A stretch of 64,000 bases of DNA from Paenibacillaceae bacterium. Lineage in GTDB: Bacteria; Bacillota; Bacilli; Brevibacillales; Brevibacillaceae. Under the pieces are notes generated by a model that was given only the letters and a program-made list of their open reading frames with translations, had not been told where the DNA came from and did not search any database. Each line of letters opens with the position of its first letter. The first letter of the stretch is position 1. Shown piece after piece: positions 7,184-48,408 of this stretch. The stretch lies in NCBI GenBank assembly GCA_041920465.1, contig JBHGXW010000045.1, forward strand, positions 5,233-69,232. Direction: 5' to 3'. The translations under genes and the position numbers were made by a program.

Positions 7184-7224
7184 ACCCACACGGCGTTAGC
7201 TTACGCAGTGCCGTGCGGGACCCC
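7184..7224 (-). repeat. REP-like hairpin R1 (reverse orientation)
   Basis: Reverse complement ggggt-cccgcacggc-15 nt-gccgtgtggg-t matches the family consensus; lies 5 nt after the icmF stop. Confidence 0.8.
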
Positions 7225-7260
7225 AGTTCTTCTGGCATGGCAGCATCGGCTAAATACAAG

Positions 7261-7295
7261 ATCCCCCGGAGCATTTTTGCCCGAGGGATTTTTTT
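7261..7295 (+). terminator. intrinsic terminator after icmF
   Basis: atccc...gggat stem followed by a T-run. Confidence 0.6.
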
Positions 7296-7652
7296 GTAAT
7301 ATTGCACTAGCATTGCATAAAACTTTATGGTTCTTGTCAAGCAAACTAACTTGTTGGGCATAGCAGTAAACTTAGGGTATTAATTGGTATTTAGAATCTT
7401 CCGTCTTTTTGTTGATTGACTTTTCAAGCAAAAAGGCCATAAACAAATTCGTTAAGATGCTCTATATCACCGATTTCAAACTGGCACAGAGTTTCCTCAT
7501 AGATCTTCTCAGGATTCCATTAAGCTTTTTTCAATTTGAATTATTTTATGGCTTGCAACGGAAGGAAAAAATACGATGGAGGATCCTGGAACTTTGCAAA
7601 TAAAAATAAAATAATAAGGTGTGCCTTGATCGTAAAAGCAATAAAAATGTTG

Positions 7653-7693
7653 TTGACATATATTTGTATGGCGGTTATATTTGTATCATACAA
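7653..7693 (+). promoter_or_regulatory. sigma-A promoter of marR with overlapping palindrome
   Basis: TTGACA (7653-7658), 17 bp, TATATT (7676-7681). Palindrome TTGTAT-C-ATACAA at 7681-7693. Confidence 0.7.
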
Positions 7694-7747
7694 TAATACA
7701 CATTATGCATTTTTTGTATGGTGTTCAATATAGTGAAAGGAGTTCCA

Positions 7748-8191
7748 ATGAACACATCACTTTTCCATGAGTTTGTAAATGAAGTTATTAAAATGTCTGG
7801 ACTACTCGGGAGAGAAACGTCGGTAGTCGCGAACTTAACTCCAAAACAGTGTCATATCATTATGGAAATTGGCACGAAAACTCTGCGTAATGGAGATTTG
7901 GCCATCTCATTAGGTGTTGATCCGTCGACTTTGACTAGAACGCTGGAACCCTTGGTTAAACATGGATTATTAAAGCGAGATCTCAATCCAACCAATCGCA
8001 GAGAAGTTTTAATTAGCCTCACTGATGCAGGTTTGGACACTTTACAGTTTATCCAAAGTCAATTGCACAATATGTTTAACCACATATTGTCTCAAATCCC
8101 GAGTGATCGTAGGCAGGAGGTTGAAAATAGTTTAGGGTTATTGCTTTCCATCATGAAAAGTAAAAACCATCACTCCCATATGCTTAAATAA
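7748..8191 (+). CDS. MarR-family transcriptional regulator
   Basis: ATG at 7748 after aaggag. LAISLGVDPSTLTRTLEPLVKHGLLKR...DRREVLISLT-type wHTH (here NRREVLISLT). Confidence 0.92.
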   Translation: MNTSLFHEFVNEVIKMSGLLGRETSVVANLTPKQCHIIMEIGTKTLRNGDLAISLGVDPSTLTRTLEPLVKHGLLKRDLNPTNRREVLISLTDAGLDTLQFIQSQLHNMFNHILSQIPSDRRQEVENSLGLLLSIMKSKNHHSHMLK

Positions 8192-8334
8192 GAAGAGGGT
8201 GGGTGATTTCTCACCCATTCCGATTCTTTGGTGAAAAAAATGATTGTCCAGGAAGGAGAGATGTAAAAAATTTTAGCATTTCATATACCGTACTGCCGTA
8301 TAGTATATTTTGTGAAGTGGAAGGATGATTTCAT

Positions 8335-9855
8335 TTGAAGACAAATGTTGGAGCTGTTCTTATCGCTCTGTTATTGGGCGTATTCATGGAGAATTTAGAT
8401 CACACTATCATGGCATCTGCACTACCCACAATCGTTTCAGACTTGAGTGGCATGGATATCTTTTCTTGGGTATTTTCTGTTTATCTCTTAACCTCAACGA
8501 TTTTTATTCCGGTTTTCGGAAAGTTAGCGGATCAATACGGTAAGAAACCGTTTCTATTGATCGGATTTATTACTTTCGTGTTGGCGTCAATTTTATCAGC
8601 CAATGCAGAAACAATGGGACAGCTTATTTTGTACCGTGCCTTGCAAGGAATGGGAGCAGCACCGCTGATGCCAATTGCTTTCTCGATGATATTTGACCTT
8701 GTCAAACCAGAGAAACAAGGCCATATGCAAGGGTTATTTGCGATCGTAAACGGCGTTTCCATGATTGCCGGACCCATTGTAGGTGCCTTTTTAACTGATC
8801 ACTTTGGTTGGAACTGGGTCTTTCTCATCAATATCCCGCTCGGTGTGATCGCAACCATTCTCATCCTTCTGTTCTACAAGGAGCAAAAAGTGAGTAAACA
8901 AGCATCTATTGATTATGCCGGTACGGTTCTATTGGTGATGGCTATTACACCATTCATGCTGGGGCTGGTTATGGGAGGAAAAGAATATGGCTGGTTATCA
9001 TGGCAGATTATCGGTCTATTTACGACAAGTTTCTTTTTCTCTTATCTCTTGATCCAAATTGAGAAAAAAGCGAAGGAGCCTATCATATCATTACAGCTTT
9101 TTAATCGTAAGGTAGTATCATCCACAAGTATCGCGTTCCTCCAAGGGATCGTTTTGATCGGTGTAATGACTTATATTCCTTTCTTCATTCAAGGGATTTG
9201 GGGAGGGACTGCCACACAGGTTGGAAATTTGATAACCGGAATGATTATAGCCCTTATGGTAGGAGCAGCCATGGGAAGTCATCTTATGGCGAAAATGTCA
9301 GCTAGAGCCCTCATTGTTTTTTCGGCAATCCTTATGGCGGGAAGCAGTGTCGCTTTCGTTCAATTAGAAGCTAGCTCTACTCCCTTGTTTTTGTTGATTA
9401 CACTTATTGTCATGGGATTAGGTATGGGGCCGCTGATGCCGCTTACCACTCTTCTTGCACAGAATGCCGTGTCAAAAGAACATACCACGAGTGTTACCTC
9501 GCTTGTCTCTTTCTATCGGAATATCGGAATGGCAGTAGGAAGCAATATTCTTGCGATATTTGTAAATCTCGGTTTGAGCACCTCTATGGATAAAATTGCG
9601 AAAGATTTTACAAACATTTCGCCACAAATTTTGGCAAGAATTGAGGATCCGAATCTGTTACTGAATGGAAAACTCCAAGCTGGAATACCACAAGAACTTA
9701 TCAACCTTATGAAGGCGGGATTAAGCATAGGTATTTCCAACGTATTTATTGCTTGTTTCGCTGTGATCGCACTGATGATTCTCTTTAGTTTACTTGCAGG
9801 TAAAGAAAAACTCGTAAGTCATTCGGACGGACAAAAGAAATTTGGTTTCCATTAA
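8335..9855 (+). CDS. MFS drug:H+ antiporter, DHA2 (14-TMS) type
   Basis: TTG start. LDHTIMASALPTI, FGKLADQYGKK (motif A), RALQGMG, GPIVGAFLTDHFGWNWVFLINIPLG. Confidence 0.93.
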   Translation: MKTNVGAVLIALLLGVFMENLDHTIMASALPTIVSDLSGMDIFSWVFSVYLLTSTIFIPVFGKLADQYGKKPFLLIGFITFVLASILSANAETMGQLILYRALQGMGAAPLMPIAFSMIFDLVKPEKQGHMQGLFAIVNGVSMIAGPIVGAFLTDHFGWNWVFLINIPLGVIATILILLFYKEQKVSKQASIDYAGTVLLVMAITPFMLGLVMGGKEYGWLSWQIIGLFTTSFFFSYLLIQIEKKAKEPIISLQLFNRKVVSSTSIAFLQGIVLIGVMTYIPFFIQGIWGGTATQVGNLITGMIIALMVGAAMGSHLMAKMSARALIVFSAILMAGSSVAFVQLEASSTPLFLLITLIVMGLGMGPLMPLTTLLAQNAVSKEHTTSVTSLVSFYRNIGMAVGSNILAIFVNLGLSTSMDKIAKDFTNISPQILARIEDPNLLLNGKLQAGIPQELINLMKAGLSIGISNVFIACFAVIALMILFSLLAGKEKLVSHSDGQKKFGFH

Positions 9856-9894
9856 AATACTGCAATTTGCATATGTACTTAGGGAGGAAAAGAA

Positions 9895-10419
9895 ATGAAC
9901 ATACAGCTTTTACAGTGGGGAATGTTTTCCTTTATGCTGGGACTGGTCTTGTCCCTGCCGCTTGCGGCTGTTTATTACCAAAAGAATTCACCGTTAACGA
10001 AAATTTTTACGAACCCCAGAAAGCTAAAATCAGCCCATCTCGATTTTTTCACGCAAGCTTTTGCCAGCGCATTTGTGTATCTGTTGGAATTTTGTACAAA
10101 AATGGAGTTTCCAAATTACGTGGTCATACCCCTTGTTTTTGGAACCATAGTGAATCCGCTGATCCTACTAATAGAATCTACACCCATATACCGTTCAGGA
10201 TACTTTAAAATTGTATACATGCTACTTCGAGTAACAAGTCCACTGTCGTTGTTTTTTGCTTGGACTGTCATAGCTGTAGTCTTTTTGCCGGGACTCTTGA
10301 AACTCCTGCTGGTTATCTTTATTCTGGTTGGGCTGTTGCTGATCTTGGTCTATTATGGGAAATTCAACCAACTGACTGATAGCTCTCCTCGATTTCGGCA
10401 GGATGAGCACCAGGTTTGA
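9895..10419 (+). CDS. small integral membrane protein, hydroxylaminobenzene mutase / styrene oxide isomerase-like
   Basis: aggagg RBS and 4-5 hydrophobic segments. LLQWGMFSFMLGLVL...NPRKLKSAHLD resembles, from memory, the Hab-mutase N-terminal pattern (G..LF.LGL...NPRMGLSAHLE). CDS is confident; family call is tentative. Confidence 0.55.
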   Translation: MNIQLLQWGMFSFMLGLVLSLPLAAVYYQKNSPLTKIFTNPRKLKSAHLDFFTQAFASAFVYLLEFCTKMEFPNYVVIPLVFGTIVNPLILLIESTPIYRSGYFKIVYMLLRVTSPLSLFFAWTVIAVVFLPGLLKLLLVIFILVGLLLILVYYGKFNQLTDSSPRFRQDEHQV

Positions 10420-10438
10420 TTGAACTCAGGAGGTAATA

Positions 10439-11218
10439 TTGATGAAAAACCGTAATGTTTTGATAACAGGAGCCAGCAGTGGAATTGGATATGAATTTGC
10501 GAAGATTTTTGCAAAAAAGGAAAATAATCTTATCCTTGTCGCTCGGAATCGAACGAGATTAGAGGAAATTCGTGCGGAGCTCATGGCAAAGGATATCACG
10601 ATTACCATTATTGAAAAGGACCTTTCATTACCAAATGCAGCTATGGATGTCTACAACGAAGTGAAAAGTCAAAATCAGCGGGTTGATGTTCTTATCAATA
10701 GTGCTGGATTTGGTCTGCAGGGGAATTTTGATGAATTGAATCTTCAACAACAGCACAATATGATGCATGTAAATATGGTATCTTTGACTGAACTTACACA
10801 TCTGTTTGTGCAAGATATGATAGGCCAGAAATTTGGCAGGATTTTAAACATTGGCTCCATTGCCTCTTTTATTTCCATGCCTTCTATGAGTGTTTACGCT
10901 GCAACAAAAGCCTACGTACTATCGTTTTCTGAATCCTTGTCAAATGAACTGAAACGGTATGGAGACATTTCCGTTACGGCTCTATGTCCCGGGCCCACGA
11001 AAACGAATTTTGTGAAGGCAGCAAACATGGTGAGTATGGAGGAAATGTATAACCGATTTGGCATGTCTGCTTCCATTGTAGCTCAGGCCGGATATGAGGC
11101 TCTAATCAAGGGAAGGCCCATTGAGATCCCTGGGAAAAGGTTTTCTCTAAGCATCATGGCGACTCGTTTTCTCCCCAGAAAATTGGTTCAAAAATTGATG
11201 ATGATTGTAAACAAGTAG
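10439..11218 (+). CDS. short-chain dehydrogenase/reductase (DltE/YqjQ-like)
   Basis: TGASSGIG, NSAG, catalytic YAATK, CPGPTKT. Confidence 0.93.
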   Translation: MMKNRNVLITGASSGIGYEFAKIFAKKENNLILVARNRTRLEEIRAELMAKDITITIIEKDLSLPNAAMDVYNEVKSQNQRVDVLINSAGFGLQGNFDELNLQQQHNMMHVNMVSLTELTHLFVQDMIGQKFGRILNIGSIASFISMPSMSVYAATKAYVLSFSESLSNELKRYGDISVTALCPGPTKTNFVKAANMVSMEEMYNRFGMSASIVAQAGYEALIKGRPIEIPGKRFSLSIMATRFLPRKLVQKLMMIVNK

Positions 11219-11222
11219 TTTT

Positions 11223-11375
11223 TTGGTGGTTTCTTTGGGCGCTGGCACACTGGCAGCTGCGTTCGCAGTTTCATCTGCGGTATTCGGAAACCTCGGTTCG
11301 TGTGTTGGCGGGATAATTCTATCATACTATGGCGGTGCCGATATGTTCCTCGTAATCTCGAAAGTGGTAAGCTAA
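11223..11375 (+). pseudogene. probable C-terminal remnant of an MFS (DHA1-like) transporter
   Basis: Open frame LVVSLGAGTLAAAFAVSSAVFGNLGSCVGGIILSYYGGADMFLVISKVVS* resembles the TM11 G...GG motif region of DHA1 transporters; no RBS. Confidence 0.45.
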
Positions 11376-11432
11376 CGCAGAACGTAACTCAGGATCTTTT
11401 AAACTACAACGAATAAGGAGTGGGGATGTGCT

Positions 11433-12068
11433 TTGAAAAAACAATGGTCGGTAGGAATTCTCGTATTTAATCAGGTTGACGCTTTTGATTTCGTCGGTCC
11501 GTCTGAAATTCTCTCAATCGCCCGATACACAACGGATGAAGTTCAGAATATGCTTCTTGGGAAGGAAGGAGATAAACAAAAGCCGTTTCTGGTTTATACC
11601 ATTTCGGAAACAGGAGAAGCGGTAACAGCCAGCAATGGGCTACGCATATTGCCTGATTACAGTATTGAGAACGCTCCGCATTTTGACATACTCCTAATTC
11701 CCGGCGCGTTTTTCCCAGATATCAAAAAGGTGATGGCCAATGACAAGGTAATTAAATGGATTCACGCCCGGATGAAAAATGTGGAACTGATGACATCAGT
11801 TTGCAGCGGTGCTTTGGTTTTGGCACAAGCGGGACTTTTAAACGGAAAAAAGGCAACAACCAACCGTAAAGCGCTTGATTTTATGCAGAAAATTTTTCCC
11901 GAAGTAACCGTAATTCGCGACTGTAAGTTTGTGGATGAGGGGAATGTTATTACTTCGCAAGGGCCTGACGCAGGGATTTATCTAGCTTTTCATCTTATCA
12001 AAAGGTTAATGGGATTGGAAGCAAGTCACATCGCAGCTGACACCCTGGAGTTTGATGGCGATATTTAA
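11433..12068 (+). CDS. DJ-1/PfpI-family protein
   Basis: TTG start after aaggag. DFVGP, DILLIPG, nucleophile elbow SVCSGA, LLNGKKATT, VDEGNVITSQG. Confidence 0.92.
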   Translation: MKKQWSVGILVFNQVDAFDFVGPSEILSIARYTTDEVQNMLLGKEGDKQKPFLVYTISETGEAVTASNGLRILPDYSIENAPHFDILLIPGAFFPDIKKVMANDKVIKWIHARMKNVELMTSVCSGALVLAQAGLLNGKKATTNRKALDFMQKIFPEVTVIRDCKFVDEGNVITSQGPDAGIYLAFHLIKRLMGLEASHIAADTLEFDGDI

Positions 12069-12336
12069 AAAAACAAGAGTCTGCGAATAACGAGATGTAG
12101 AATGGCTCTTCCTAAAATCTAAGTATTGTAGAGATGGTGAAGGTACTTTTGAAGAAAACAGCCGGTTTTTACTGGCTTGCCTTTAGAACAGTTTATAGGC
12201 TATTTACCCAGCAAATCAATCGCGCGATCCCCGTTTTCGTGAACTCACAACGGAATAGGTATAAAAATAGGAATAAATGAAGTGTCCAAGGCAAACCCCA
12301 ATCATTACTGCTGCTTCTAGTTTTGACGCTGTTCGT

Positions 12337-12414
12337 TTAAATATTCGCAAAATCCGCCGAAGTCAATTCTTGCAGTTTTTCAAAGTCGATCACACGTCTG
12401 CCATTTTCTATTCG
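12337..12414 (-). pseudogene. possible 3' remnant of an XRE/Cro HTH regulator
   Basis: Minus strand reads RIENGRRVIDFEKLQELTSADFANI*, resembling the XRE S-R-I-E-N-G motif; 5' part abuts the repeat at 12414. Confidence 0.35.
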
Positions 12415-12480
12415 AGAGAAGCCGGACTTGAATACAACTTCGCAAGCTGTAACGGGAGGCACGAAAGGACAACGTTTTTC
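12414..12480. repeat. 67-bp repeat, right end of the MITE-like element at 48253-48540
   Basis: gagagaagccggacttga...cgcaagctgtaacgg(g)aggcacgaaaggacaacg..tttttc aligns to 48474-48540 with 5 substitutions and 2 one-base indels (manual count). Confidence 0.85.
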
Positions 12481-12504
12481 TGAGTGGATAAGAATTTATA
12501 AGTT

Positions 12505-12546
12505 GGGGGCCCCGCCGGGCGCAACGATAGTTATAGCCCGGTGGGT
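12505..12546 (+). repeat. REP-like hairpin R2
   Basis: ggggg-c-cccgccgggc-gcaacgatagttata-gcccggtggg-t, followed by tttc. Confidence 0.8.
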
Positions 12547-12656
12547 TTTCTTATTTGGCCCTGATTCCCCATGGGAAGACAATAGTTTGAAACTCTTGCA
12601 TTTTCGGTTAAAATGAGGAATACTGTATGATAGCCAAGTTATTGTTGTGAAAGGAC

Positions 12657-13190
12657 GTGCACGGCTTGAGTCAATTACTCCAAAATATCGATCAAGAGAA
12701 GCTTAATGAAATGGCGATGGTTGACATCGCATTTGAGATCTTAAAGGAACAAAACCGTCCCTATAATTTCCGTGAATTAATGGGGGAGATTGCCGCGCTA
12801 CGTAACATGACTGAAGAACAAATGATGTCTATGATAGCTCAAGTCTATACTGAAGTAAACATCGACGGACGCTTCATTTGCCTGGGAGATAACACTTGGG
12901 GCTTGAAACGCTGGTATCCAATGGAAACAGTGGAAGAAAGTCAAGAAGGCGGCGGCAAGAAGAAAAAACTGGTTTCCGACGACGACTTCGACGACGATTA
13001 CGAATTGGATGAAGAACTGGATGAAGTGTATGAAGAAGATGACGATCTCATTGCCTACGACGATGAAGAGGACTTCATCGACGAAGACCTGGATGACGAT
13101 GATGAGATTGAAGAAGACCTCGATGAAGAAGAGCTGTTTGAAGAGGATTTGGTGGACGAAGAGCTTGAAGAAGAAAATGAAGAGGATTAA
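12657..13190 (+). CDS. rpoE: RNA polymerase delta subunit
   Basis: QVYTEVNIDGRFICLGDNTWGLKRWYP, K-tract and D/E-rich tail; directly upstream of pyrG. Confidence 0.96.
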   Translation: MHGLSQLLQNIDQEKLNEMAMVDIAFEILKEQNRPYNFRELMGEIAALRNMTEEQMMSMIAQVYTEVNIDGRFICLGDNTWGLKRWYPMETVEESQEGGGKKKKLVSDDDFDDDYELDEELDEVYEEDDDLIAYDDEEDFIDEDLDDDDEIEEDLDEEELFEEDLVDEELEEENEED

Positions 13191-13200
13191 TGATCAATCC

Positions 13201-15009
<1,809 letters not shown>

Positions 15010-15032
15010 CCTTTGACATATAATATTCGATT

Positions 15033-15064
15033 AAGGAGAGTGCGGGTTCAGCATTCTCCTTTTT
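15033..15064 (+). terminator. intrinsic terminator after pyrG
   Basis: aaggagagtgc/gcattctcctt stem followed by a T-run. Confidence 0.75.
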
Positions 15065-15098
15065 CACTAGCCAAAGAATATCTTTTCTTGCAGATAAG

Positions 15099-15125
15099 GG
15101 AGGATTTTCCTGTTGATTAGAGAAT
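15099..15125 (+). promoter_or_regulatory. sigma-H-type promoter of spo0F
   Basis: GGAGGATTT-11 bp-AGAGAAT fits RNAGGAWWW-N11/12-RNNGAAT. Confidence 0.7.
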
Positions 15126-15192
15126 TTTTAAACGTTGATACTAGCTCTTGATGCAGAATAATCCTAATCATCTTCACTAGGGGGAAAGGAAA

Positions 15193-15558
15193 ATGCAAAA
15201 GAAAAAGGTGTTAGTAGTAGATGATCAATACGGAATCCGAATCCTTTTATATGAGGTGCTGGGCAAGGAAGGATATTCAACGTTTCAAGCAGCAAACGGC
15301 AAACAGGCATTGGAAATCGTGCAGAAGGAACACCCCCATCTCGTTATCCTTGATATGAAAATACCAGGTATGGATGGGATAGAAATTTTGAAACACATCA
15401 AGAAGATCGACCAGAATATCAAAGTGATCATGATGACGGCGTACGGTGAGCTTGACATGATTAAAGAAGCAACTCAGTTGGGTGCACTTACCCATTTCAC
15501 CAAACCGTTCGATATTGATGAGTTGCGCCATGCCGTGAATCAGCAGTTGGCAGGGTGA
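15193..15558 (+). CDS. spo0F: sporulation initiation phosphotransferase F
   Basis: [48 protein letters not shown]; between pyrG and fba. Confidence 0.96.
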
Positions 15559-15648
15559 AAAGCTGTTAACCAAATGGACACCTGTTAAGTTGGGTTCAAT
15601 TGTGGTATAATAAGCCGTGTTGTTACAACAACAATTGGAGGAGGAATC

Positions 15649-16509
15649 ATGCTTATGCCACTCGTACCTATGACCGCATTTTTAGAAGACGTAAAGAAAA
15701 ATAAATATGCGGTAGGCCAATTCAACATCAACAACCTTGAGTTCGTGCAAGCTATCACAGATGCGGCGATCGAAGAAAAGTCTCCGGTAATCTTCGGTGT
15801 ATCCGAAGGCGCGATGCGTTACATGGGACTTGAATATACCGTAGCGATGGCTAAAGTGGCTGCAGAACGTGCAGGTGTACCTGTTGCACTCCATCTTGAC
15901 CATGGAAGCAGCTTTGAAGTTGTCATGAAATGTATCCGTGCCGGATTCTCTTCTGTCATGTTTGACGGCTCCCATTATCCTTTGGAAGAAAACATTCGTT
16001 TGACCAAGCAGGTAGTTGAAGCTGCTCATGCGGTTGGGGTTTCTGTTGAAGGCGAATTAGGCACAATCGGCGGTACTGAAGATGACCTCTCTGTAGATGA
16101 AGAACATGCAGCCTTGGCTAAACCGGATGAAGCGATTCGCTTCTGGGAAGAGACCAAAGTTGACTATTTGGCAATCGCCGTTGGTACAGCTCACGGTTTA
16201 TATAAAGGCGTGCCAAAAATTCATTACGATATTATCGATGAAGTTGCCAAAAACATTGGCGCACCGATTGTATTGCACGGTGGTTCCGGTGTTCCGGACG
16301 AAGCGATTGTCACTGCAATCAGCCATGGTGTAGGTAAAATCAACGTAAATACCGAGAACCAGGTAGCTTGTACAGAAGTGATTCGCAAAGTATTGGCTGA
16401 AAAACCAAAAGAAATCGACCCACGCAAATATCTCGGTCCTGCTCGTGAAGCAATTAAAGAAGTTGTTAAAGGTAAAATGCGTTTGTTTGGTAGCAGCAAC
16501 CGTGCCTAA
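15649..16509 (+). CDS. fbaA: class II fructose-1,6-bisphosphate aldolase
   Basis: [28 protein letters not shown]. Confidence 0.96.
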
Positions 16510-16523
16510 TTAGGAGGGTGCCC

Positions 16524-17168
16524 ATGCGATTTTTTATAGATACAGCCAATGTCGAAGAGATACGGGAGATTCATGATTGGGGCGTTGTGGCCGGCGTTAC
16601 AACCAACCCCTCGCTTGTTGCGAAAGAAGGCCGTGATTTTATCGAGACTCTGAAAGAGATTATCGACATAGTAGACGGTCCGATTAGTGCCGAGGTTATC
16701 AGTCTTGATGCCAAGGGTATGATTGAAGAGGGCGAAAAATTGGCCTCTTTGTCCAAAAACATCGTCGTAAAAATCCCGATGACGGAAGACGGATTGAAAG
16801 CGGTAAAGGCATTAGCAAAGCGAAAAATCAAAACGAACGTAACATTGATCTTCAATCCGAACCAGGCACTTTTAGCAGCACGTGCTGGAGCTACATATGT
16901 CTCTCCGTTTTTGGGACGTTTGGATGATATCGGACACGATGGGCTTCAACTAATTACGCAGATAGCGGAAATTTTTGCTGTTCATGATATTGAAACAGAG
17001 ATTATCGCTGCCAGCATTCGCCATCCGTTGCATGTCACCGAAGCGGCTCGCCGTGGATCTCATATAGCGACAATTCCTTATAAAGTGTTCAAGCAGCTTT
17101 TGCAGCACCCGCTTACGGATCTTGGAATTCAAAAGTTCCTGGCCGACTGGGAAGGCATGCAAAAGTAG
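16524..17168 (+). CDS. tal: transaldolase (Fsa-type)
   Basis: [33 protein letters not shown]. Confidence 0.95.
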
Positions 17169-17279
17169 CGGTTTTAATCGGTTATTGATGTTGGAGCACC
17201 TTTTCCCCGCAGGAGAAGGTGCTCCTTTCGGGAGAACGCCGACTGCTAAAGATACGAGTAAACCTAGGGAGAGCGAACA

Positions 17280-23329: not shown

Positions 23330-23383
23330 GTGCGTTTATATAACTCTGTTTCGGTAGACGATTCAGGGCGGAAAGAGGTGGAA
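23330..23383 (+). promoter_or_regulatory. probable L31 (rpmE) leader RNA
   Basis: ataactctgtttc...gattcagggcgg immediately 5' of rpmE resembles the conserved Firmicutes rpmE leader (recalled, not searched). Confidence 0.5.
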
Positions 23384-23711: not shown

Positions 23712-23735
23712 GGGGTCCCGCCGGGCTCGGTGGGT
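23712..23735 (+). repeat. internally deleted REP-like hairpin R3
   Basis: ggggtcccgccgggc-tcggtgggt(tttct): the flanks match R2 but the loop region is missing. Confidence 0.7.
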
Positions 23736-23756
23736 TTTCTTAGGGGGAAACGCAAG

Positions 23757-24953: not shown

Positions 24954-24956
24954 ATA

Positions 24957-24996
24957 ACCCGCCCGACTACAGCTAGCGCTACGTCGGGCGGGCCCC
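24957..24996 (-). repeat. REP-like hairpin R4 (reverse orientation)
   Basis: Reverse complement gggg-cccgcccgac-gtagcgctagctgta-gtcgggcggg-t. Confidence 0.8.
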
Positions 24997-25098
24997 ACAA
25001 GGCTCATGATCCTGAGCCTTTTTTCTTTGACTTATATGTGGTTTTCTTCTATAATTATACTGTTATCGAGCAATTTGTTAATTTGGGGTGAAATTACG

Positions 25099-27063: not shown

Positions 27064-27122
27064 CCCCGCCCGGCGCTTTTCTGGGCTCCGCTCGGCGTAG
27101 CCTACGCTGTGGCCGAGCGGGT
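27064..27122 (+). repeat. REP-like hairpin R5 with a partial unit upstream
   Basis: gggc-tccgctcggc-gtagcctacgctgtg-gccgagcggg-t (27083-27122), preceded by ccccgcccggcgc. Confidence 0.78.
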
Positions 27123-27167
27123 TACGTCAGCTAAAGTAGGATGGGTATAAATTTGATAGAGAACCGC

Positions 27168-38371: not shown

Positions 38372-38427
38372 GCTCCCGCCCGGCGCAACAAGGACGTTGA
38401 GTTTAGCCGACTTATAGCCGGGGGGTA
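38372..38427 (+). repeat. degenerate REP-like unit R6
   Basis: gctcccgcccggcgcaac...ttatagccgggggg: both arms match R2, with an expanded loop. Confidence 0.55.
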
Positions 38428-38451
38428 TAATTGCGAACTGTTTAGAATATT

Positions 38452-38479
38452 GCAGGAATATTACGACTTGAGAAAGAAT
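38452..38479 (+). promoter_or_regulatory. sigma-H-type promoter of the thiolase gene
   Basis: GCAGGAATA-12 bp-AAAGAAT. Confidence 0.55.
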
Positions 38480-38525
38480 TAATTTGAGGTAGATGTCCAA
38501 ACAATTTTCCCAAGGAGTGGTAACG

Positions 38526-39716
38526 ATGAGTCATAAAGAAGTTGTCATCGTCAGCGCTGTACGCACTGCAATCGGAAACTTCCAAGGATCACTGGCAGGT
38601 ATTAGTGCTCCCAAACTAGGTGCTGTGGTACTGGAAGCCGCATTAAGCAGAGCGGGGGTAGACAAGTCATTGGTCGGTGAAGTGATATTAGGCAACGTGC
38701 TGCAGGCGGGCCTCGGCCAGAATCCGGCAAGACAGGCAGCGATTCAAGCGGGTTTTGGTCATGAAGTTCCGGCGATGACAATCAACAAAGTTTGTGGCTC
38801 TGGTTTGAAAGCGGTACATCTGGCAACACAATCTATTTTGGCTGGCGATTCTGACATTATTTTGGCCGGCGGCATGGAAAACATGAGCCAAGCTCCTTAT
38901 CTTTTGGAAGGTGCACGCAGCGGTTACCGGATGGGAGATTCCAAAGTGGTAGACTCCATGATTCGAGATGGGTTATGGTGTGCTTTTAATGATTATCACA
39001 TGGGGATTACGGCGGAGAATTTATGTGAACACTATGGATTGACACGTGAAGAACAGGACGAGTTTTCTGCTTGGAGTCAGGAAAAGGCTCAAAGAGCAAT
39101 TGCCGAAGGACGATTCAAAGACGAGATTGTTCCGGTAGCCATTCCTCAGAAAAAGGGCGATCCGCTGCTGTTTGAAGTGGATGAATTCCCGCGTGCCGGA
39201 GTAACTGTAGAAGCACTTGGCAAACTGCGTCCTGCATTCAAAAAAGACGGCAGCGTTACGGCCGGAAATGCTTCCGGTATAAATGACGGAGCTGCAGCCT
39301 TATTAATTATGTCCCGTGAAAAAGCGGATGAGCTGGGACTGAAACCATTGGCCCGGATCGTTGCCAATGCAAGTGCCGGGGTTGACCCGAAAATAATGGG
39401 TATCGGTCCCGTTCCGGCAACCAAACGCGTGCTGGAAAAAGCATCTCTCACTTTGGATGACATGGACTTGATTGAAGCGAATGAAGCGTTTGCCGCACAG
39501 TCTTTGGCGGTTGGCAAGGATCTGGGAGTCAATCGTGACAAACTGAACGTGAACGGTGGAGCAATCGCTCTGGGACACCCGATTGGTGCCAGCGGTGCAA
39601 GGATTTTAGTCACACTTGTACATGAATTGCAAAAACGCGACGAAGCCAGATATGGCCTGGCAACTCTATGCATCGGAGGAGGTCAAGGGGTCGCCACAAT
39701 AATAGAGAAATTGTGA
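38526..39716 (+). CDS. acetyl-CoA C-acetyltransferase (thiolase)
   Basis: [31 protein letters not shown]. Confidence 0.96.
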
Positions 39717-39845
39717 ACGAATTGTGAACGCTTTGTGGCTGAATACTAGTGAAAGTTGACAAATCTAATAATTCTTCGTTAATATGGATGAGGGCATGAG
39801 GCAAGTTCACGCCCTCTCCTTTTGTGAAAAAAGGGGGTCTTTCGA

Positions 39846-40055
39846 TTGTCTAAACTGGATAATCCGTGGCAGGCCATTATATTTGTCAGCTTGATCGGAG
39901 TCGATTTGGCTGTCTGTGTCTTAGCTGGATTTTGGTTGGGGCAATACATAGATCGCGTGTATGGGACAAATCCTTGGTTTATGATTGTGGGTTTGTTTTT
40001 GGGATTAGGAACCGGTGTTTATAGTGTTTATCGGCTCGTACGCGCTTACTTGTAG
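39846..40055 (+). CDS. atpZ: AtpZ/AtpQ-family F0F1 accessory protein
   Basis: LAGFWLGQYIDRVYGTNPWFMIVGLFLG; first gene of the atp operon. Confidence 0.8.
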   Translation: MSKLDNPWQAIIFVSLIGVDLAVCVLAGFWLGQYIDRVYGTNPWFMIVGLFLGLGTGVYSVYRLVRAYL

Positions 40056-40070
40056 TTGGGAGCACTGAAG

Positions 40071-40439
40071 ATGCAAACGTTTACCTCGGCAATGCGCATG
40101 GTATTTCGCTATGCTTTTTTTAGTATGGCGATTGTTATGGCACTCTGGGCCCTGTTGCCTGAGCGTCGTTTATTTTTACAAAGCTTATTGCTAGGGATGG
40201 CGGCAAGCGTGATTAACGGTGCTGTACTCTGGAGCAAGACGTGGCGGGTCGGGGAATCAGCCGTGAATCCCAAGGTTCGCCCCAAGGGAACGGGCATGAT
40301 GCAGCGTTTGGTCGTTGCCGGATTTGCAGTCTATCTGACGATGCGTTTCCCGGAACACTTTATGCTGGCCGGTGTCTTGATCGGTCTATTCCTCATCCAA
40401 CTCCTAAGTCTCTTATTGGTTAATCGATTTTTAAAATAG
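40071..40439 (+). CDS. atpI: ATP synthase protein I
   Basis: Four-TM hydrophobic protein between atpZ and atpB. Confidence 0.8.
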   Translation: MQTFTSAMRMVFRYAFFSMAIVMALWALLPERRLFLQSLLLGMAASVINGAVLWSKTWRVGESAVNPKVRPKGTGMMQRLVVAGFAVYLTMRFPEHFMLAGVLIGLFLIQLLSLLLVNRFLK

Positions 40440-40509
40440 AGCCTTACCGTCTTTTTTTCTGTTGTCTCCTGTTTTATTACACCAATAGCTGATAGAAAGG
40501 GGTGAAATC

Positions 40510-41319
40510 ATGCATCATTTTTCGCCGCGTTTTGAAGTGGCAGGTATGGTATTTGACATACCAACAATGATTATGACTGTAGTAACTGCTCTTGTGGTGT
40601 TCTTTCTCATTTTGGGATTGACTCGCAATATGTCGGCAGGGGTGCCGCGCGGTGCACAAAACTTCATGGAATGGGTTATTGATTTCGTAAAAGGAATCGC
40701 CGGCAACTTCATGGATGCCAAAACCTCCGCCAAATTTGTGACACTGGGACTGACGCTCTTCCTCTATATTTTTGTCGGAAACCAGCTCGGTCTGTTGTTT
40801 AACGTCAACGTTACCTACAAAGGACATATCAGCGAAAGCTTTATGAATATGTTGACGCTTTCCGGAACAGAGGAAGCACAGCACCATAAACAGGAAGCAA
40901 TCACTAAGGAACTTGAAGAACAGGGAGTAACCGTTTCCTATTGGAAATCGCCTACTGCTGCGCCTAGTGTAACGTTCTCTCTAGCGCTTCTGGTTCTCTT
41001 GTATGCACACTACCTGGGACTTCGCAAAGGTGTCGGGAAATACCTCAAGCATTACATTGAGCCAAACCCGGGGATCTTGCCGCTACACTTGATGGAAGAG
41101 TTCGTCATCAAACCGCTGACGCTTCCATTGCGTCTATTCGGTAACATTTTTGCCGGTGAGGTCTTGATCTCCGTATTGCTTGGTGCGGGAGTTGTTGTTG
41201 CAACTCTGCCGCTTGTCGTATGGCTCGGTTACTCCGTATTCGTAGGTTCTGTGCAGGCATTTATCTTCACGACACTTACCATGGTGTACATTTCACAAAA
41301 AGTGAACGATCACCACTAA
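40510..41319 (+). CDS. atpB: ATP synthase subunit a
   Basis: PRGAQNFMEW, LTLPLRLFGNIFAGE, QAFIFTTL. Confidence 0.97.
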   Translation: MHHFSPRFEVAGMVFDIPTMIMTVVTALVVFFLILGLTRNMSAGVPRGAQNFMEWVIDFVKGIAGNFMDAKTSAKFVTLGLTLFLYIFVGNQLGLLFNVNVTYKGHISESFMNMLTLSGTEEAQHHKQEAITKELEEQGVTVSYWKSPTAAPSVTFSLALLVLLYAHYLGLRKGVGKYLKHYIEPNPGILPLHLMEEFVIKPLTLPLRLFGNIFAGEVLISVLLGAGVVVATLPLVVWLGYSVFVGSVQAFIFTTLTMVYISQKVNDHH

Positions 41320-41356
41320 TCATCAAATCAAACTAAAATTTGTGTAATCACCTTAA

Positions 41357-41590
<234 letters not shown>

Positions 41591-41722
41591 TAGTCAAAAG
41601 TATCAAATGGGCGGGGGCTTGACCTTCGCCTCTCTTTTGTAGTGTTTTATGGCTTCTCGTAACGATGGAGAGGAAGCCAGTTTGTATAGGATTCTCCTGT
41701 ATGTCAGGAAGGAGTGAACCAA

Positions 41723-42226
41723 ATGATCGACTTAGGATCCGTATCCCTTGAGTGGGGCACGATGCTGTTCCAGGCTCTCGTCTTCCTTGTGCTCTTGTTG
41801 TTGGTGCGCAAGTTTGCGATGGGACCTGCAATGGCAGTTATGGAAAAACGCCGTCAGCATATTGAAAACGAAATCTCTGCTGCTGAGCGCAATCGTCAGG
41901 AAGCAGAAGCGCTTTTGGCTGAGCAACGCCGTATCCTGGATGAAGCGCGTACGGAAGCAAAAGCAATTCTTGATCGTGTAACCAAACAGGCAAATGACGA
42001 ATCCGCTCGAATTGTAGAAGAAGCGAAAGCGACTGCTGAGCGATTGAAAGCAGATGCTTCCGCTGAATTGGCTCGTGAAGTGGAAAAAGCAAAAGCTGAG
42101 CTGCGTGACCAAATGGCAGGACTCTCCGTATTGCTCGCTTCCAAAATTATTGAGAAAGAATTGGATGAAGCTGCCCAAAAGGCAAGCGTTGATCAATTCC
42201 TCAAACAAGTAGGGGATCGCCTATGA
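41723..42226 (+). CDS. atpF: ATP synthase subunit b
   Basis: N-terminal TM segment followed by a coiled coil; operon position. Confidence 0.96.
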   Translation: MIDLGSVSLEWGTMLFQALVFLVLLLLVRKFAMGPAMAVMEKRRQHIENEISAAERNRQEAEALLAEQRRILDEARTEAKAILDRVTKQANDESARIVEEAKATAERLKADASAELAREVEKAKAELRDQMAGLSVLLASKIIEKELDEAAQKASVDQFLKQVGDRL

Positions 42227-42750
42227 GCGGAGCAGTAGCCAAGCGCTATGCTCGTGCACTGTTCGAAGTAGCCAAAGAGCGTGGGCTGATCGATAAGTTG
42301 GAAGCCGAATTGAAATTGATTGTGGAAGCTGTCAACCAAAACGCAGATCTTACCAGAATTTTAATGCACCCTCACATTGCTGCTGACGCGAAGAAAAACC
42401 TGTTAAAAGAAGTTTTTCAAGAACACGTAGCGGATGAAACCATGAATTTTTTGGGTGTATTGATTGATAATGGCCGTGAATCCCAACTGTCTGAGATTGC
42501 AAGCTATTATGTTGGATTGGCGAACGAAGAGCGTGGTATCGCCGATGCAATTGTTACCACCGCGAAACCGCTTAACCAAGAAGAGGCGCAGCAATTGGCT
42601 TCGAGATTTGGGCAATTACTCAACAAGACGCTTCGCATTCAAACCGTTGTAGATCCATCCATCATGGGTGGCGTCGTGGTGAAAATCGGCGATCGTCTGT
42701 ACGATGGTAGCATCAAACGTAAATTGGAACACTTCGCGCATCAACTATAA
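42223..42750 (+). CDS. atpH: ATP synthase subunit delta
   Basis: VAKRYARALF, VDPSIMGGVVVKIGD..YDGS. Confidence 0.97.
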   Translation: MSGAVAKRYARALFEVAKERGLIDKLEAELKLIVEAVNQNADLTRILMHPHIAADAKKNLLKEVFQEHVADETMNFLGVLIDNGRESQLSEIASYYVGLANEERGIADAIVTTAKPLNQEEAQQLASRFGQLLNKTLRIQTVVDPSIMGGVVVKIGDRLYDGSIKRKLEHFAHQL

Positions 42751-42779
42751 GATGTCTGGATGAATGGGGTGAAAGATAA

Positions 42780-44291
<1,512 letters not shown>

Positions 44292-44364
44292 TCTTCCCGC
44301 ATAATTGACATCTTTTGCGTGCCGGGGCATTTACCTGGTACGCATCCCCAAGGTGGTGAAATGA

Positions 44365-45222
44365 GTGGCTCAAGGAACACGTGAAATAAAGCGTCGGATT
44401 AAAAGTATCAAGAATACCCGTCAAATTACCAAAGCGATGAAGATGGTGGCAGCGGCTAAGCTTCGCCGTGCGCAAGAGAAAGCAGAAGCAGCTCGCCCTT
44501 ATGCGCGCAAGATCCAAGAAGTAATCGCCAGTATTGCTTCCGGATCATCGAGTGCGAAACATCCGATGCTGCAATCCAGACCTGTGAAAAAGACCGGTTA
44601 TATCGTTATTACATCTGACCGTGGTCTGGCAGGCGGATACAATGGAAACATGATCCGCAAGGTTGTTCAAACAATTCGCGAAAACCATAAGTCTCAGGAT
44701 GAATACGCGCTGTTTGTCATTGGACGCAAAGGCCGCGACTTCTTCAAGAAGCGCAATTTCCCGGTGATGGAAGAGGTTGTGGGATTGCCTGAGAGTCCGT
44801 CCTTCTCGGACATTAAGAAAATCGCGAGTGCAGCAGTGAATTTGTTTGCAGACGAGAAAATTGACGAATTGTACCTCTGCTATAACGAGTTCCAAAGCGC
44901 AATCTCGCAGATACCTCAAGTTACCCGCTTGCTCCCGTTGCAAGCCGTAGAAAGTGCGGAGCGCAAGATCAACTATGAATACGAGCCTTCTGCAGAAGAA
45001 GTGCTTTCTGTGCTCTTGCCGAAGTACGCTGAGACATTGATTTACAGTGCGTTGCTCGATGCAAAAGCGGCTTTCTATGGTGCTCAAATGACGGCGATGG
45101 GTAACGCAACGGATAACGCTAGTGATATGATTGACCGTCTGACATTGTTCTTTAACCGTGCTCGTCAAGCGTCGATTACGCAAGAGATCTCTGAGATCGT
45201 CGCAGGTGCGAACGCGCTGTAA
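44365..45222 (+). CDS. atpG: ATP synthase subunit gamma
   Basis: [36 protein letters not shown]. Confidence 0.98.
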
Positions 45223-45254
45223 TCGTCAACCAGGCTTTACAAGTAAGCTTTTAG

Positions 45255-46679
<1,425 letters not shown>

Positions 46680-46706
46680 GACAACCCTGGAAAGGGGAGA
46701 CGGTAA

Positions 46707-47111
46707 GTGAGCAAGATGACAGTTGAAGTCGTAACTCCCGAACGGGTTGTCTATAGCGGTGAAGCAACAATGGTAATTGCACGCGGCGTTGATGGGGATC
46801 TTGGTATTTTGCCAAACCATATGCCGCTGGTTACCCCGCTGAAAATCGCGCCAGTTCGGATCAAAACCGAGGGCGACAAAGAGACGCAAATCGCCGTTAG
46901 CGGCGGCTTCATGGAAGTCCGCGGCGATAAAGTAACCATTCTTGCTGAAACAGCTGAGCTGCCGGAAGATATCGATGTAGCTCGTGCCCAAGCAGCAAAA
47001 GCGCGTGCAGAGCAACGCCTCATTGAGAAGCACCCTGACCTCGATCAGCGTCGTGCAGAGCTTGCCTTGCAACGTGCGATGGCGCGTCTTGAAGTCACCA
47101 ATAAACGTTAA
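46707..47111 (+). CDS. atpC: ATP synthase subunit epsilon
   Basis: [30 protein letters not shown]. Confidence 0.97.
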
Positions 47112-47117
47112 TAGAGA

Positions 47118-47148
47118 ATCCCTGCTTGCGATATGCGGCAGGGATTTT
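47118..47148 (+). terminator. atp operon terminator
   Basis: aatccctgc/gcagggatt stem followed by Ts. Confidence 0.75.
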
Positions 47149-47232
47149 TACTCGTTGCATGGCCTTTACCCGCTACATTCCTTTACTTGCTACAGGCTGT
47201 TGTTCTTCACAGACCGATGTGTCAGGACGATG

Positions 47233-47261
47233 CGGTTTAGCCGGGATATAGCCGGGAGGGC
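47233..47261 (+). repeat. degenerate REP-like right half R7
   Basis: cggtttagccgggatatagccgggagggc resembles R8 (cggcttagcgtagcttaagccgggtgggc). Confidence 0.4.
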
Positions 47262-47382
47262 AGGGTTTTTTATTGGTAATGCACACCACTTTAAGTGTAT
47301 AATAGTTCTGATATAGATTTTTGTGCCATTTGGGGAATCTTACTACTAATGATGTCAATACATTGGCAAGGAGAGTGGCTTC

Positions 47383-48126
47383 ATGCAAACAATTCGAGAC
47401 GTCCGGAAAACGGCGAACGATGATACAATTATACCGAATGGATTTACTGCTAATGGATGGGGAAGTATCCTTTCACATGAAATGAAGGTTCTTTTTCAAG
47501 GGCTCTGCTATGTTGTATCCAAATTTGATACCAAAGCAGAAATGAATAAGGCACTCGACGGCATCCGAGGCTTGAGAGGCACGTTTGCTCCGCTTGAAAA
47601 AAGCTTATTCAAGTCAGAGGAATCTTATGAAGGGTACCGTCAGCACATCGAGAAACATCGGGAATTTTTGGAACGGTCCGGATATACATATCCTTCTTCC
47701 CGCGATGAAGCAATTGAGTTGTTCGTAAAGTGGGGATTAGTTCTTGATCAAGGTGATGCTTGGGACGTACCGATCACACCATTCCCGGATGTACAAGATA
47801 TTTTCACGTTGACAGACGTTGAAAAAATGGCGTTAAACACAATTAAACTGGAAGCGCTGGTTCACCCGATCTTCAGCAAATTGATTCTTGCTCTGCATGA
47901 AAAGGATGAAGAAACGTTCCATCTCTCCAAGGCAGACCTGAAGGAAATGTTACAAGTAAATGATTCTCTTCTTCTTGAGGTGCTGATCAAACTGGTGCCT
48001 TACCTGAAACAGCCGATCGACAATATTCAAGAGATTCCGGAAGACGAAAAAATGGAGATCAGTGTTGTGTGGGAACGTATTTATGAGGACTTTTTAGGCG
48101 ATAAAAATCCTCAAGCTGTCCAATAA
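47383..48126 (+). CDS. hypothetical protein (possibly DUF6042)
   Basis: 247-aa ORF with RBS (aaggagag) and its own terminator; family name from memory only. Confidence 0.8.
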   Translation: MQTIRDVRKTANDDTIIPNGFTANGWGSILSHEMKVLFQGLCYVVSKFDTKAEMNKALDGIRGLRGTFAPLEKSLFKSEESYEGYRQHIEKHREFLERSGYTYPSSRDEAIELFVKWGLVLDQGDAWDVPITPFPDVQDIFTLTDVEKMALNTIKLEALVHPIFSKLILALHEKDEETFHLSKADLKEMLQVNDSLLLEVLIKLVPYLKQPIDNIQEIPEDEKMEISVVWERIYEDFLGDKNPQAVQ

Positions 48127-48308
48127 TTCCATATCAATATCAATGTAAGCATGAGGGAGGACTCTTGTCCTTCTTTTTTTGTGCTATAAAAGAAAGTTTA
48201 ATCGCTTTAAATTAAAGTGGTTAAACTTTCTTTCCAATCGCGCAGCCAGTGGGAAAAACGATTGTCCATTTCGCAGCGACTTTTACAGCGCAAGCCCAGG
48301 CGCTCGCT

Positions 48309-48348
48309 GGGGCCCCGCTCGGCTTAGCGTAGCTTAAGCCGGGTGGGC
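48309..48348 (+). repeat. REP-like hairpin R8
   Basis: gggg-c-cccgctcggc-ttagcgtagcttaa-gccgggtggg-c. Confidence 0.8.
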
Positions 48349-48368
48349 AAAAATCGTCAGGAGAAAAA

Positions 48369-48408
48369 GGGTCCCGACCGGCGCCACGTAAGTTATGGCC
48401 GGGTGGGT
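48369..48408 (+). repeat. REP-like hairpin R9
   Basis: gggt-cccgaccggc-gccacgtaagttatg-gccgggtggg-t. Confidence 0.8.

Follow-up and report, generated by a model that had tools for sequence, protein, structure and literature searches.

A stretch of 64 000 nucleotides from a Paenibacillaceae bacterium (Brevibacillaceae in the GTDB; contig JBHGXW010000045.1), here called the window, carries several copies of a short G+C-rich hairpin between its genes, in both orientations, and raises the question of what these hairpins are and how they came to be scattered. An earlier note, made from the sequence of the window, had described them as a small, possibly mobilisable family of single-stranded DNA hairpins and had likened them to the repetitive extragenic palindromic (REP) sequences. 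We followed the hairpin, denoted H (hairpin module), together with two larger modular repeats that host copies of it (denoted L and C), through the source genome (G000; 3.70 Mb, 76 contigs, 47% G+C, the window being C19:5233-69232) and through its relatives. H is a real, strand-specific stem-loop family with a copy number far above chance, and we conclude with high confidence that it is a mobile, non-autonomous hairpin module. Copy number, a patchy species range and pairs of filled and empty sites support the mobilisable family that had been proposed.

All six full copies described in the window were recovered at their places, all are intergenic, and all match (49-65 bits) a covariance model, R1, which was built from 31 distinct copies of G000 and comprises 44 positions and 13 pairs. 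The stems that had been quoted and their complementary changes are correct, as is the G-T wobble at stem position 4 in four of the six (24957 and 27083 have G-C). The idea that only a few copies exist genome-wide is ruled out, since R1 gives 131 matches in G000 at E ≤ 0.01 and 110 at E ≤ 1e-4; nhmmer finds 117 copies (E ≤ 1e-3) and the loose pattern YCCGNNNGRC-N13-16-GYCNNNYGGG 89 loci. When hairpins with this type of stem were sorted by loop length, a sharp peak was seen at 15 (142 hairpins, versus 31-49 at each other length).

The H unit is ∼ 44 nt long including its 5′ tag, GGGG(C); 55 of 115 copies have GGGGC, and most of the remainder have xGGGC or GGGxC. The stem consists of 10 bp rich in G+C (CCCG-NNN-GRC / GYC-NNN-YGGG), with the wobble at position 4 in 90 of 115 copies of G000 and, in the commonest subtype, an A-G mismatch at position 5. 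The 'loop' of 15-16 nt itself holds a 3-bp helix (AGC/GCT or AAC/GTT) with the cap C-GNNA-G, and the 3′ tail is most often TTTTCTTA. Pairs that the selection pattern leaves unconstrained covary in G000, namely 12-37 (CG 23, UA 6, AU 1), 13-36 (CG 25, GC 4), 15-34 (GC 19, AU 12) and the loop pair 21-28 (GC 21, AU 10). Overall, 97% of paired cells in the alignment are complementary versus 26-47% with the partners slid. The copies of G000, those of other genera and those in rRNA make up three independent sets, in which 97-99% of stem cells pair and compensatory changes are seen. Dispersed copies in relatives keep the architecture with new compensatory pairs, such as CCCAGCCGAC/GTCGGCTGGG; their position-4 pair is GU in 28, AU in 11 and GC in 5, and A-C never occurs on the consensus strand. 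Folded as DNA, the top strand of H is better than the bottom strand by 2-4 kcal/mol. The family is extragenic by preference: 18 of the 117 copies fall inside crude open reading frame (ORF) calls and 23 at contig edges, while ORFs cover 87% of G000. Searches of Rfam with the window and four repeat loci, at gathering and at permissive thresholds, gave no family matching H, L or C, and no match to the C repeat was obtained in plasmid and phage collections.

R1 was run on 40 relatives. The two congeners have 28 (G001) and 3 copies, G004 has more than 148 and G009 has 97, and most other genomes of the family have 0-4; the exception is G013, where all 24 matches lie within rRNA operons. In 16 genomes that represent other families of the class there was no copy. 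When 185 579 species genomes were scanned with a pattern, multiple copies were seen, among the matches listed, only in Brevibacillus sp. H7, Brevibacillus sp. SYP-B805 and one Paenibacillaceae metagenome-assembled genome, the remaining listed matches being single chance matches in high-G+C genomes. These counts and matches thus place H in the family Brevibacillaceae, in agreement with the Brevibacillus-like host that had been suspected. Within the family the positions are not fixed. Counts are patchy, occupancy varies both in the larger repeats and in 23S rRNA (see below), and two copies of the window are absent at orthologous sites: the copy at 24957 is missing from G001, G002, G003 and G009, and at 27083 the block 27084-27147, which lies directly 3′ of ..TTTTCTG in G000, is missing from G002, the spacer at this site being 70-90 nt shorter in G001, G003 and G004.

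Sorted by context, the 117 nhmmer copies are nested (62), leader-type (13) or solo (42). The nested copies lie at fixed internal sites of the L and C repeats, 0, 1 or 2 per repeat, where three sites are variably filled; that many H copies are modules of larger elements is a point missing from the earlier note. In G000 the L repeat (∼ 340 bp) is represented by 56 tails and the C repeat (250-360 bp) by 37; together they have 96 heads, share a palindromic head with 18-bp arms and both end ..TTTTCTTA. A search for autonomous versions found no head-tail pair 450-4000 bp apart in G000. The repeats sit behind terminator T-runs at ∼ 100 places genome-wide (examples are C30:78800-79230 and C12:11547-11832), and many contigs end in them. 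Some L and C copies have, in place of the tail or behind it, a 16-nt tandem repeat, ACGTTTCAGTCCCCCG (C1:13000-13040, C16:23530-23560, C56:25560-25600, C65:7840-7880). An origin of the two repeats from TnpB and its omega RNA was considered and is ruled out, because there is no TnpB in G000 or G009.

Leader-type units (13 by the nhmmer classes, 18 when a motif scan is included) have the form NNGGATAAGAATTTATAAGTT-GGGGGC-hairpin-TTTTCTTA. Their homologue in Brevibacillus sp. H7 is ∼ 105 nt long and has 30 extra bases between leader and hairpin. Many of the solo copies retain a remnant of the leader, ..AAGTT. In a further set of variants the same two arms enclose 60 nt (∼ 9 copies) or ∼ 130 nt (∼ 6 copies); besides a remnant in the window at 38372 these include C18:7863(-), C52:37846(+), C14:95953(-), C4:31225(-) and C76:60217(-). 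Since leader and both stem arms are intact in these long-loop variants and structured sequence lies between the arms, they suggest that the apical loop of H itself takes up insertions. At C43:8430-8519(-) and C63:12330-12410(+) the leader ATAGGAATTTATAAATT and the tail TTTTCTTA flank another terminal hairpin, GGCTCGGCAAGTACCGAG; thus the leader-and-tail frame is common to more than one hairpin type.

The flanks of H indicate where it lands. Leader-type units are preceded by the G/C-rich end of a stem, then 6-7 T and one variable purine (SS-T6-7-R). Each of the positions -8 to -2 is T in 17-25 of the 27 distinct copies from Brevibacillus sp. H7 and, apart from -4, in 12-16 of the 18 from G000; at -4 the latter have C in 11 of 18, giving TTTTCTTA. 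Two kinds of hairpin are found upstream of the landing site, native terminators and the right ends of L, C or H copies that were there before. On the other side the right end is constant, GGGTTTTCTTA; as the left flank is variable, there is no target duplication, and terminal inverted repeats beyond 6 nt are likewise lacking. All 17 hairpin pairs less than 1 kb apart in G000 are direct and none is inverted, which is explained by the landing motif being formed anew with every insertion; close pairs have no gene between them. The feature common to H sites is unpaired sequence adjoining a stable helix.

The same preference is met inside rRNA genes. In the closed genome G013 the 24 matches correspond to three hairpins in each of eight rRNA operons, all within the 23S gene and on its sense strand. 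A comparison of 30 23S loci of the family defined three insertion sites, each the apical loop of an rRNA helix. Site s1 reads GGAATTTAGAG when empty and GGA[TGGGAC-hairpin-TCC]AGTGAGAG when filled, s2 reads GGGTTAATAGCCC and GGGT[GAGGGTC-hairpin-CTG]AGCCC, and s3 TTAGCGCAAGCGAAG and TTAGC[TTCTGGGC-hairpin-TAGAA]GCGAAG, respectively. Nine genomes have fillings, in seven different combinations: all three sites in G013 and G052, s1 and s2 in G063 and G041, s2 and s3 in G051, s1 and s3 in G048 and G008, s2 alone in G068 and s1 alone in G061. The 21 other loci are empty at the sites recovered. In G008, G048, G051 and G063 the filling is limited to some operons. Although R1 was built solely from intergenic copies of G000, the rRNA inserts reach 20-42 bits with it, and empty loci give no match. 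The stems of the inserts covary (pair 13-36, GC 13, UA 4, CG 3; pair 14-35, AU 8, GC 8, GU 3), and the wobble is kept (GU 13, GC 6). Because G013 and G008 have no dispersed H copies, gene conversion and a homologous exchange of rRNA segments may account for the spread of the rRNA copies. The pattern of loops beside helices could, within rRNA, also be a product of selection alone. The 23S gene of G000 lies outside the assembly, and metagenome contigs are too mixed for assignment. The searchable literature yielded nothing on 23S insertions in Brevibacillus. The rRNA operon of G013 has the order 16S-5S-23S, with the 5S gene and a Bacillaceae-1 RNA (Rfam) between 16S and 23S.

Strand polarity was read from the local GC skew (± 20 kb), with which 73.5% of ORFs agree. 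The consensus strand, which bears the wobble, is the G>C strand for 88 of 101 copies in G000; by class, this holds for all 46 nested, 11 of 13 leader-type and 31 of 42 solo copies. L and C heads behave alike (66 of 70, and 8 of 9 where the upstream gene is opposed), as do the copies of Brevibacillus sp. H7 (42 of 46, in 8-kb loci) and SYP-B805 (6 of 6). Where tandem genes run against the skew, the hairpins side with the skew 5:1. All eight rRNA operons of G013 that bear hairpins point the same way as replication from dnaA, as rRNA operons usually do. In Bacillota the G>C strand is the leading strand, and the wobble strand is thus the lagging-strand template. The wobble goes with the strand of the element: G-T is retained in 11 of 14 copies antisense to their flanking genes versus 12 of 19 sense copies. 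Structure therefore follows the orientation of the element rather than that of the mRNA, as had been claimed, and the wobble strand tracks GC skew.

These features fit the published logic of two systems that move or process single-stranded DNA by Y1 HUH tyrosine transposases. IS200/IS605 elements use only the top strand, with subterminal hairpins, a guide sequence 5′ of the hairpin foot and action at the lagging-strand template (PMC3333891, PMC6006769). REP sequences carry a tetranucleotide, GTAG or CGTC, 5′ of the hairpin foot (PMC3333891, PMC3733652), and binding of TnpA-REP needs a mismatch in the stem (PMC3333891). H has a strand-specific structure, a 5′ tag, a non-Watson-Crick pair, neither inverted repeats nor duplications, a short landing motif and lagging-strand-template polarity. 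It is for this fit that our preferred reading is a Y1 HUH enzyme that acts in trans and moves H in single-stranded form. We judge the case for this reading to be evenly poised; both the single-stranded form and the choice of enzyme are what we infer. H would act as a hairpin on one DNA strand, the one bearing the G-T wobble, which in most copies would be the lagging-strand template. It would be copied or moved as single-stranded DNA by the trans-acting enzyme, in the manner of IS200/IS605 'peel-and-paste' or of TnpA-REP processing, with stem, wobble and 5′ tag as the features that the enzyme recognizes. The hairpin would then land in unpaired DNA beside stable helices: in the T-rich tails of intrinsic terminators or of earlier copies, giving direct tandem arrays, in loops of the two larger non-autonomous repeats and in apical loops of 23S rRNA helices.

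G000 encodes two Y1 HUH proteins, an IS200 TnpA and a protein resembling the REP-associated tyrosine transposases (RAYT). The IS200 gene (C16:58925-59392(-), tnpA only) is intact and its product scores 162 bits against NF033573. The RAYT-like protein reaches 71 bits against NF047646 (cut-off 80), with the HUH motif NHFHILI and a Tyr in SRYIHRNP, as read from the sequence; its gene (C69:53384-53926(-)) lies directly downstream of a gene for a ComM/YifB-like Mg-chelatase. This gene occurs in the two genomes richest in H (G000, 110 copies; G004, more than 148) and in no other; those that lack it include G009 (97) and G001 (28). Six copies define the ends of the IS200 as [T-run]|GTATAA(N)GAAAACCCCCAG.. 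and ..GCCACCGGCTAAGCCGGTGGTTATGACT|. They always stand directly 3′ of a T-run, and in G004 one is placed exactly between a T-run and an H leader. The start, GTATAA.GAA, resembles the H leader GT(G)TATAAGAA, the first ∼ 10 nt of the left end being alike, and both elements close on the right with a GC hairpin and a further 7-8 nt. A tail ..CGGTGGGTTTTCTTA that had appeared common to the IS200 of G000 and H is flanking DNA, as the six copies fix the right end at ..GGTTATGACT. No TnpB is present in G000, nor any multi-copy transposase, nor an intact DDE transposase bounded by H ends. Truncated or frameshifted fragments of IS4/IS1182-like transposases occur at C63:12790-13476 and C68:1500-2040, one fused to an IS21 IstB-like remnant; the leader motif lies beside such a fragment, but it is not the end of that element.

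A number of observations weigh against this mechanism. The earlier note had suggested a search for a RAYT or IS200-type TnpA flanked by copies; neither gene of G000 has an H copy within 1.5 kb on either side (by inspection and R1), and the RAYT-like gene has no R1 match within ∼ 1.5 kb in G000 or G004. That gene is found only in G000 and G004 of 16 family genomes and is possibly frameshifted in G004. Enzyme presence and hairpin number correlate poorly across genomes: IS200 at 94-96% identity occurs in G000, G004, G009, G008 and G012, of which G008 and G012 have no dispersed hairpins, even though G008 holds 12 IS200 matches (6 full-length), while the 28 hairpins of G001 are accompanied by no RAYT-like gene and by no IS200 closer than a distant relative at 29% identity. 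R1 finds nothing at E ≤ 1 in the IS200 loci, so that the IS200 hairpins are not significantly similar to H, and H lacks an IS200-like hairpin at its left end. Nested and rRNA sites are loops that are not all T-rich, one being a GCAA loop. The strand bias of solo copies, at 76%, is no greater than that of genes, and polarity was derived from local GC skew on a draft assembly rather than from mapped replichores. Among the metagenome runs that hold this sequence (oil-sands DNA runs), a near-identical strain in run X4 has the same copies, and no strain-level empty site was seen.

Three other explanations have to be weighed with the transposase model. If H were a functional RNA, a terminator or 3′-end stabiliser kept by selection, then its spread and orientation would reflect gene direction and not DNA mobility. 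The TTTTCTTA that follows the stem in most copies is consistent with this, as are the position of most copies downstream of genes (33 of 46 in tandem gene contexts are sense), the RNA-typical GNRA-like loops and G-U wobbles, the tolerance of H on the sense strand of 23S rRNA and the collapsed copy at 23712, which has the form of a plain terminator and is called one by a consensus scan. Many copies do have the G+C stem and U-run of an intrinsic terminator, but the expected sense placement 3′ of a gene fails: 14 of 33 solo and leader copies in tandem contexts are antisense and seven lie between divergent genes. Copies usually stand behind an existing terminator, 11 of 14 antisense copies keep the wobble on their own strand, and with all 46 on the G>C strand the nested copies exceed genes in their bias. 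Identical copies, the patchy species range and filled and empty sites would demand a copying process anyway. We consider a purely RNA-level explanation very unlikely; some sense copies may possibly have been exapted as terminators.

Could the arms instead be the terminal inverted repeats of a classical miniature inverted-repeat transposable element (MITE), moved as double-stranded DNA by a DDE transposase, with the 15-nt loop as a minimal interior? The variants with 60 nt or ∼ 130 nt between the same arms would suit such an element, and so would the 6-bp inverted repeat formed by leader TAAGAA and tail TTCTTA and the degraded IS4/IS1182-like fragments in G000. However, left and right flanks differ and there is no target-site duplication, the arms covary between subfamilies rather than staying conserved, and the two strands differ in wobble, 5′ G tag and 3′ T tail. 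The strong strand bias, the exclusively direct tandem pairs and the lack in G000 of an intact DDE transposase with these ends or of any multi-copy transposase leave little probability for a MITE. A different route of movement is unlikely, though it deserves consideration. Extruded hairpins might be the substrate of a structure-specific nuclease or recombinase, or H might pass through an RNA intermediate that is turned back into DNA and comes to rest in loops of structured RNA genes and behind terminators. Such a route would accommodate the poor correlation of IS200 and RAYT-like genes with hairpin number, the insertions in loops of 23S helices and of structured repeats, all sense, and the A-run that follows the hairpin in some copies. 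Against it, no match to a group II intron or other RNA family was obtained (no dedicated search for reverse transcriptases was run), no candidate gene lies beside copies or between close hairpin pairs, and selection alone can explain the location in rRNA loops.

The copies and related features of the window are given in the table below, together with the hairpins in 23S rRNA of G013. Among the degenerate copies proposed for the window, those at 23712 (an apical deletion), 38372 (a deletion form of the long-loop variant, in which part of the 60-nt insert separates the arms) and, weakly, 47233 (a 3′ half) are borne out, but that at 63978, which is cut by the window end, has no nhmmer match and is unconfirmed. 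The six full copies are flanked by icmF, DJ-1/HARE-HTH, prfA, prmC/spoIIR and DUF6042/InhA genes.

Features of the window, and of an rRNA locus (L127) of G013, with their positions
Feature	Position	Strand	Score (bits)	Description
Solo H copy	7182-7225	-	57.2	3 nt past the icmF stop codon, antisense to icmF; stem CCCGCACGGC/GCCGTGTGGG, G-T at position 4
C-repeat tail fragment	12414-12481	+		..GGCACGAAAGGACAACGTTTTTCTGA; the next element sits behind its T-run tail
Leader-type element, ∼ 70 nt	12486-12556	+		GGATAAGAATTTATAAGTT-GGGGGC-hairpin-TTTTCTTA
Hairpin of the leader-type element	12505-12548	+	64.9	
L31-Firmicutes ribosomal protein leader (Rfam)	23344-23377	+	38.8	Upstream of rpmE
Collapsed derivative	23712-23742	+		GGGGT-CCCGCC-GGGCTC-GGTGGG-TTTTCTTA; apical part deleted
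Solo H copy	24955-24998	-	58.5	Between the stop codon of a 170-aa ORF and that ORF's terminator, upstream of prfA
Solo H copy	27081-27124	+	48.9	Between prmC and spoIIR, directly 3′ of ..GCTTTTCTG
Long-loop variant remnant	38372-38431	+		5′ arm CCCGCCCGGC-GCAAC, 3′ arm TTATAGCCGGGGGG
3′ half only, weak	47233-47275	+		..TATAGCCGGGAGGG, then T-run; no model match
Full C repeat	48186-48542	+		Directly 3′ of a terminator T-run; palindromic head GAAAGTTTAATCGCTTTAAATTAAAGTGGTTAAACTTTC, split long stem in body, tail ..GGACAACGATTTTTCTT; hosts two nested hairpins
Nested hairpin 1	48308-48350	+	53.7	Site 1 of the C repeat
Nested hairpin 2	48367-48410	+	54.8	Lies within the A-rich internal loop of the C long stem, whose left arm it splits; A-G mismatch at position 5 of the hairpin stem
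Bacillaceae-1 RNA, G013	L127 1767-1832		60	
23S hairpin, G013	L127 2962-3006	sense		
23S hairpin, G013	L127 3884-3928	sense		
23S hairpin, G013	L127 4061-4105	sense		

How does H compare with known systems? The REP sequences, with the bacterial interspersed mosaic elements (BIMEs) and REP doublets (REPINs) that they form, are associated with the Y1 transposase RAYT, or TnpA-REP (PMC3333891, PMC3116915, PMC3733652). Like them, H is an extragenic imperfect palindrome of 35-45 nt in ∼ 100 or more copies, with a conserved tetranucleotide just 5′ of the foot and a conserved non-Watson-Crick stem position, whose role in binding is suggested by analogy. Subfamily changes in the stem keep complementarity, copies cluster at one locus, and a RAYT-like HUH gene is present in the genome as a single copy. 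The analogy drawn in the earlier note nevertheless breaks down at its defining points. The tag is GGGG(C) and not GTAG or CGTC, and H occurs singly or in direct tandem, never as the inverted pairs of BIMEs and REPINs. The RAYT-like gene falls below the cut-off (71 versus 80 bits), is unflanked by copies (no REPtron) and is missing from G009, which has 97 copies. Unlike the Proteobacteria of REP, the host belongs to a Bacillota family, and unlike REP, H has a conserved inner helix in its loop and sits after T-runs and inside rRNA.

Gene-less IS200/IS605 derivatives, the palindrome-associated transposable elements (PATEs), are moved in trans, for example in Geobacillus stearothermophilus (PMC10055086). 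H shares with IS200/IS605 and PATEs a strand-specific hairpin near one end, insertion 3′ of a short motif, the bias to the lagging-strand template and the lack of inverted terminal repeats and target duplication. Mobilization in trans by a single resident tnpA is usual for such elements, and the tnpA of G000 appears intact from its sequence. The resident IS200 is alike in its T-run target, its GTATAA.GAA left terminus and its right end of a GC hairpin plus 7-8 nt. Unlike these elements, H has one hairpin instead of matched left-end and right-end hairpins, and its right terminus, TTTTCTTA, differs from that of the resident IS200, TTATGACT. G000 has no TnpB or omega RNA, and the IS200-rich genomes G008 and G012 can be without H. 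Thus H works like REP or PATE yet fails the defining tests of both.

Other short repeats offer partial parallels. The pneumococcal BOX element has boxB modules between boxA and boxC, much as L and C have 0, 1 or 2 H modules between a fixed head and tail. BOX is named together with RUP, bcr1 and ERIC in the background of PMC3733652. There is no sequence relation between BOX and H, and unlike BOX, H also stands alone and in rRNA, is strictly strand-biased and follows terminators. Intervening or expansion sequences of bacterial 23S rRNA are short extra stem-loops at variable helix tips that differ between operons and species; unlike these, a single 44-nt module here fills three helices and occurs dispersed between genes as well. 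Bacterial class C group II introns insert just after a terminator stem and T-run, in the orientation of the terminator. H resembles them in landing behind a terminator T-run in the same orientation, but it measures 44-105 nt, and the Rfam scans gave no ribozyme or reverse-transcriptase signature (no dedicated search for the latter was made). No Rfam family, IS200 end or publication matches H, and Rfam and the searchable literature, to which the comparison was confined, ISfinder lying outside it, hold no description of H or of such repeats in Brevibacillus. The traits that set H apart are the colonization of rRNA and the homing to terminator tails. We tentatively raise the possibility, doubtful as it is at present, that H represents a new class of single-hairpin mobile DNA in Bacillota, a 44-nt module with its own 5′ tag, which would home with fixed lagging-strand-template polarity into unpaired DNA beside stable helices, at terminator tails and in loops of other repeats and of 23S rRNA helices, and would be driven by an unlinked trans-acting HUH enzyme.

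For the organism, H, L and C add terminator-like hairpins beside many genes, and they break the G000 assembly at many contig ends. To our knowledge, the spread of REP-like hairpins is poorly understood and almost all work on it concerns Proteobacteria. H provides an example from a Gram-positive spore-former in which tag and landing context are defined, the wobble is conserved and strand polarity is strong, and it offers natural pairs of filled and empty sites and only two candidate Y1 enzymes. The 23S fillings, sometimes in one operon only, connect mobile hairpins with the expansion of rRNA and with differences among operons, and they matter for ribosome evolution and for rRNA-based typing. 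If the new class proposed above is real, H would remodel ribosomal RNA as well as intergenic DNA.

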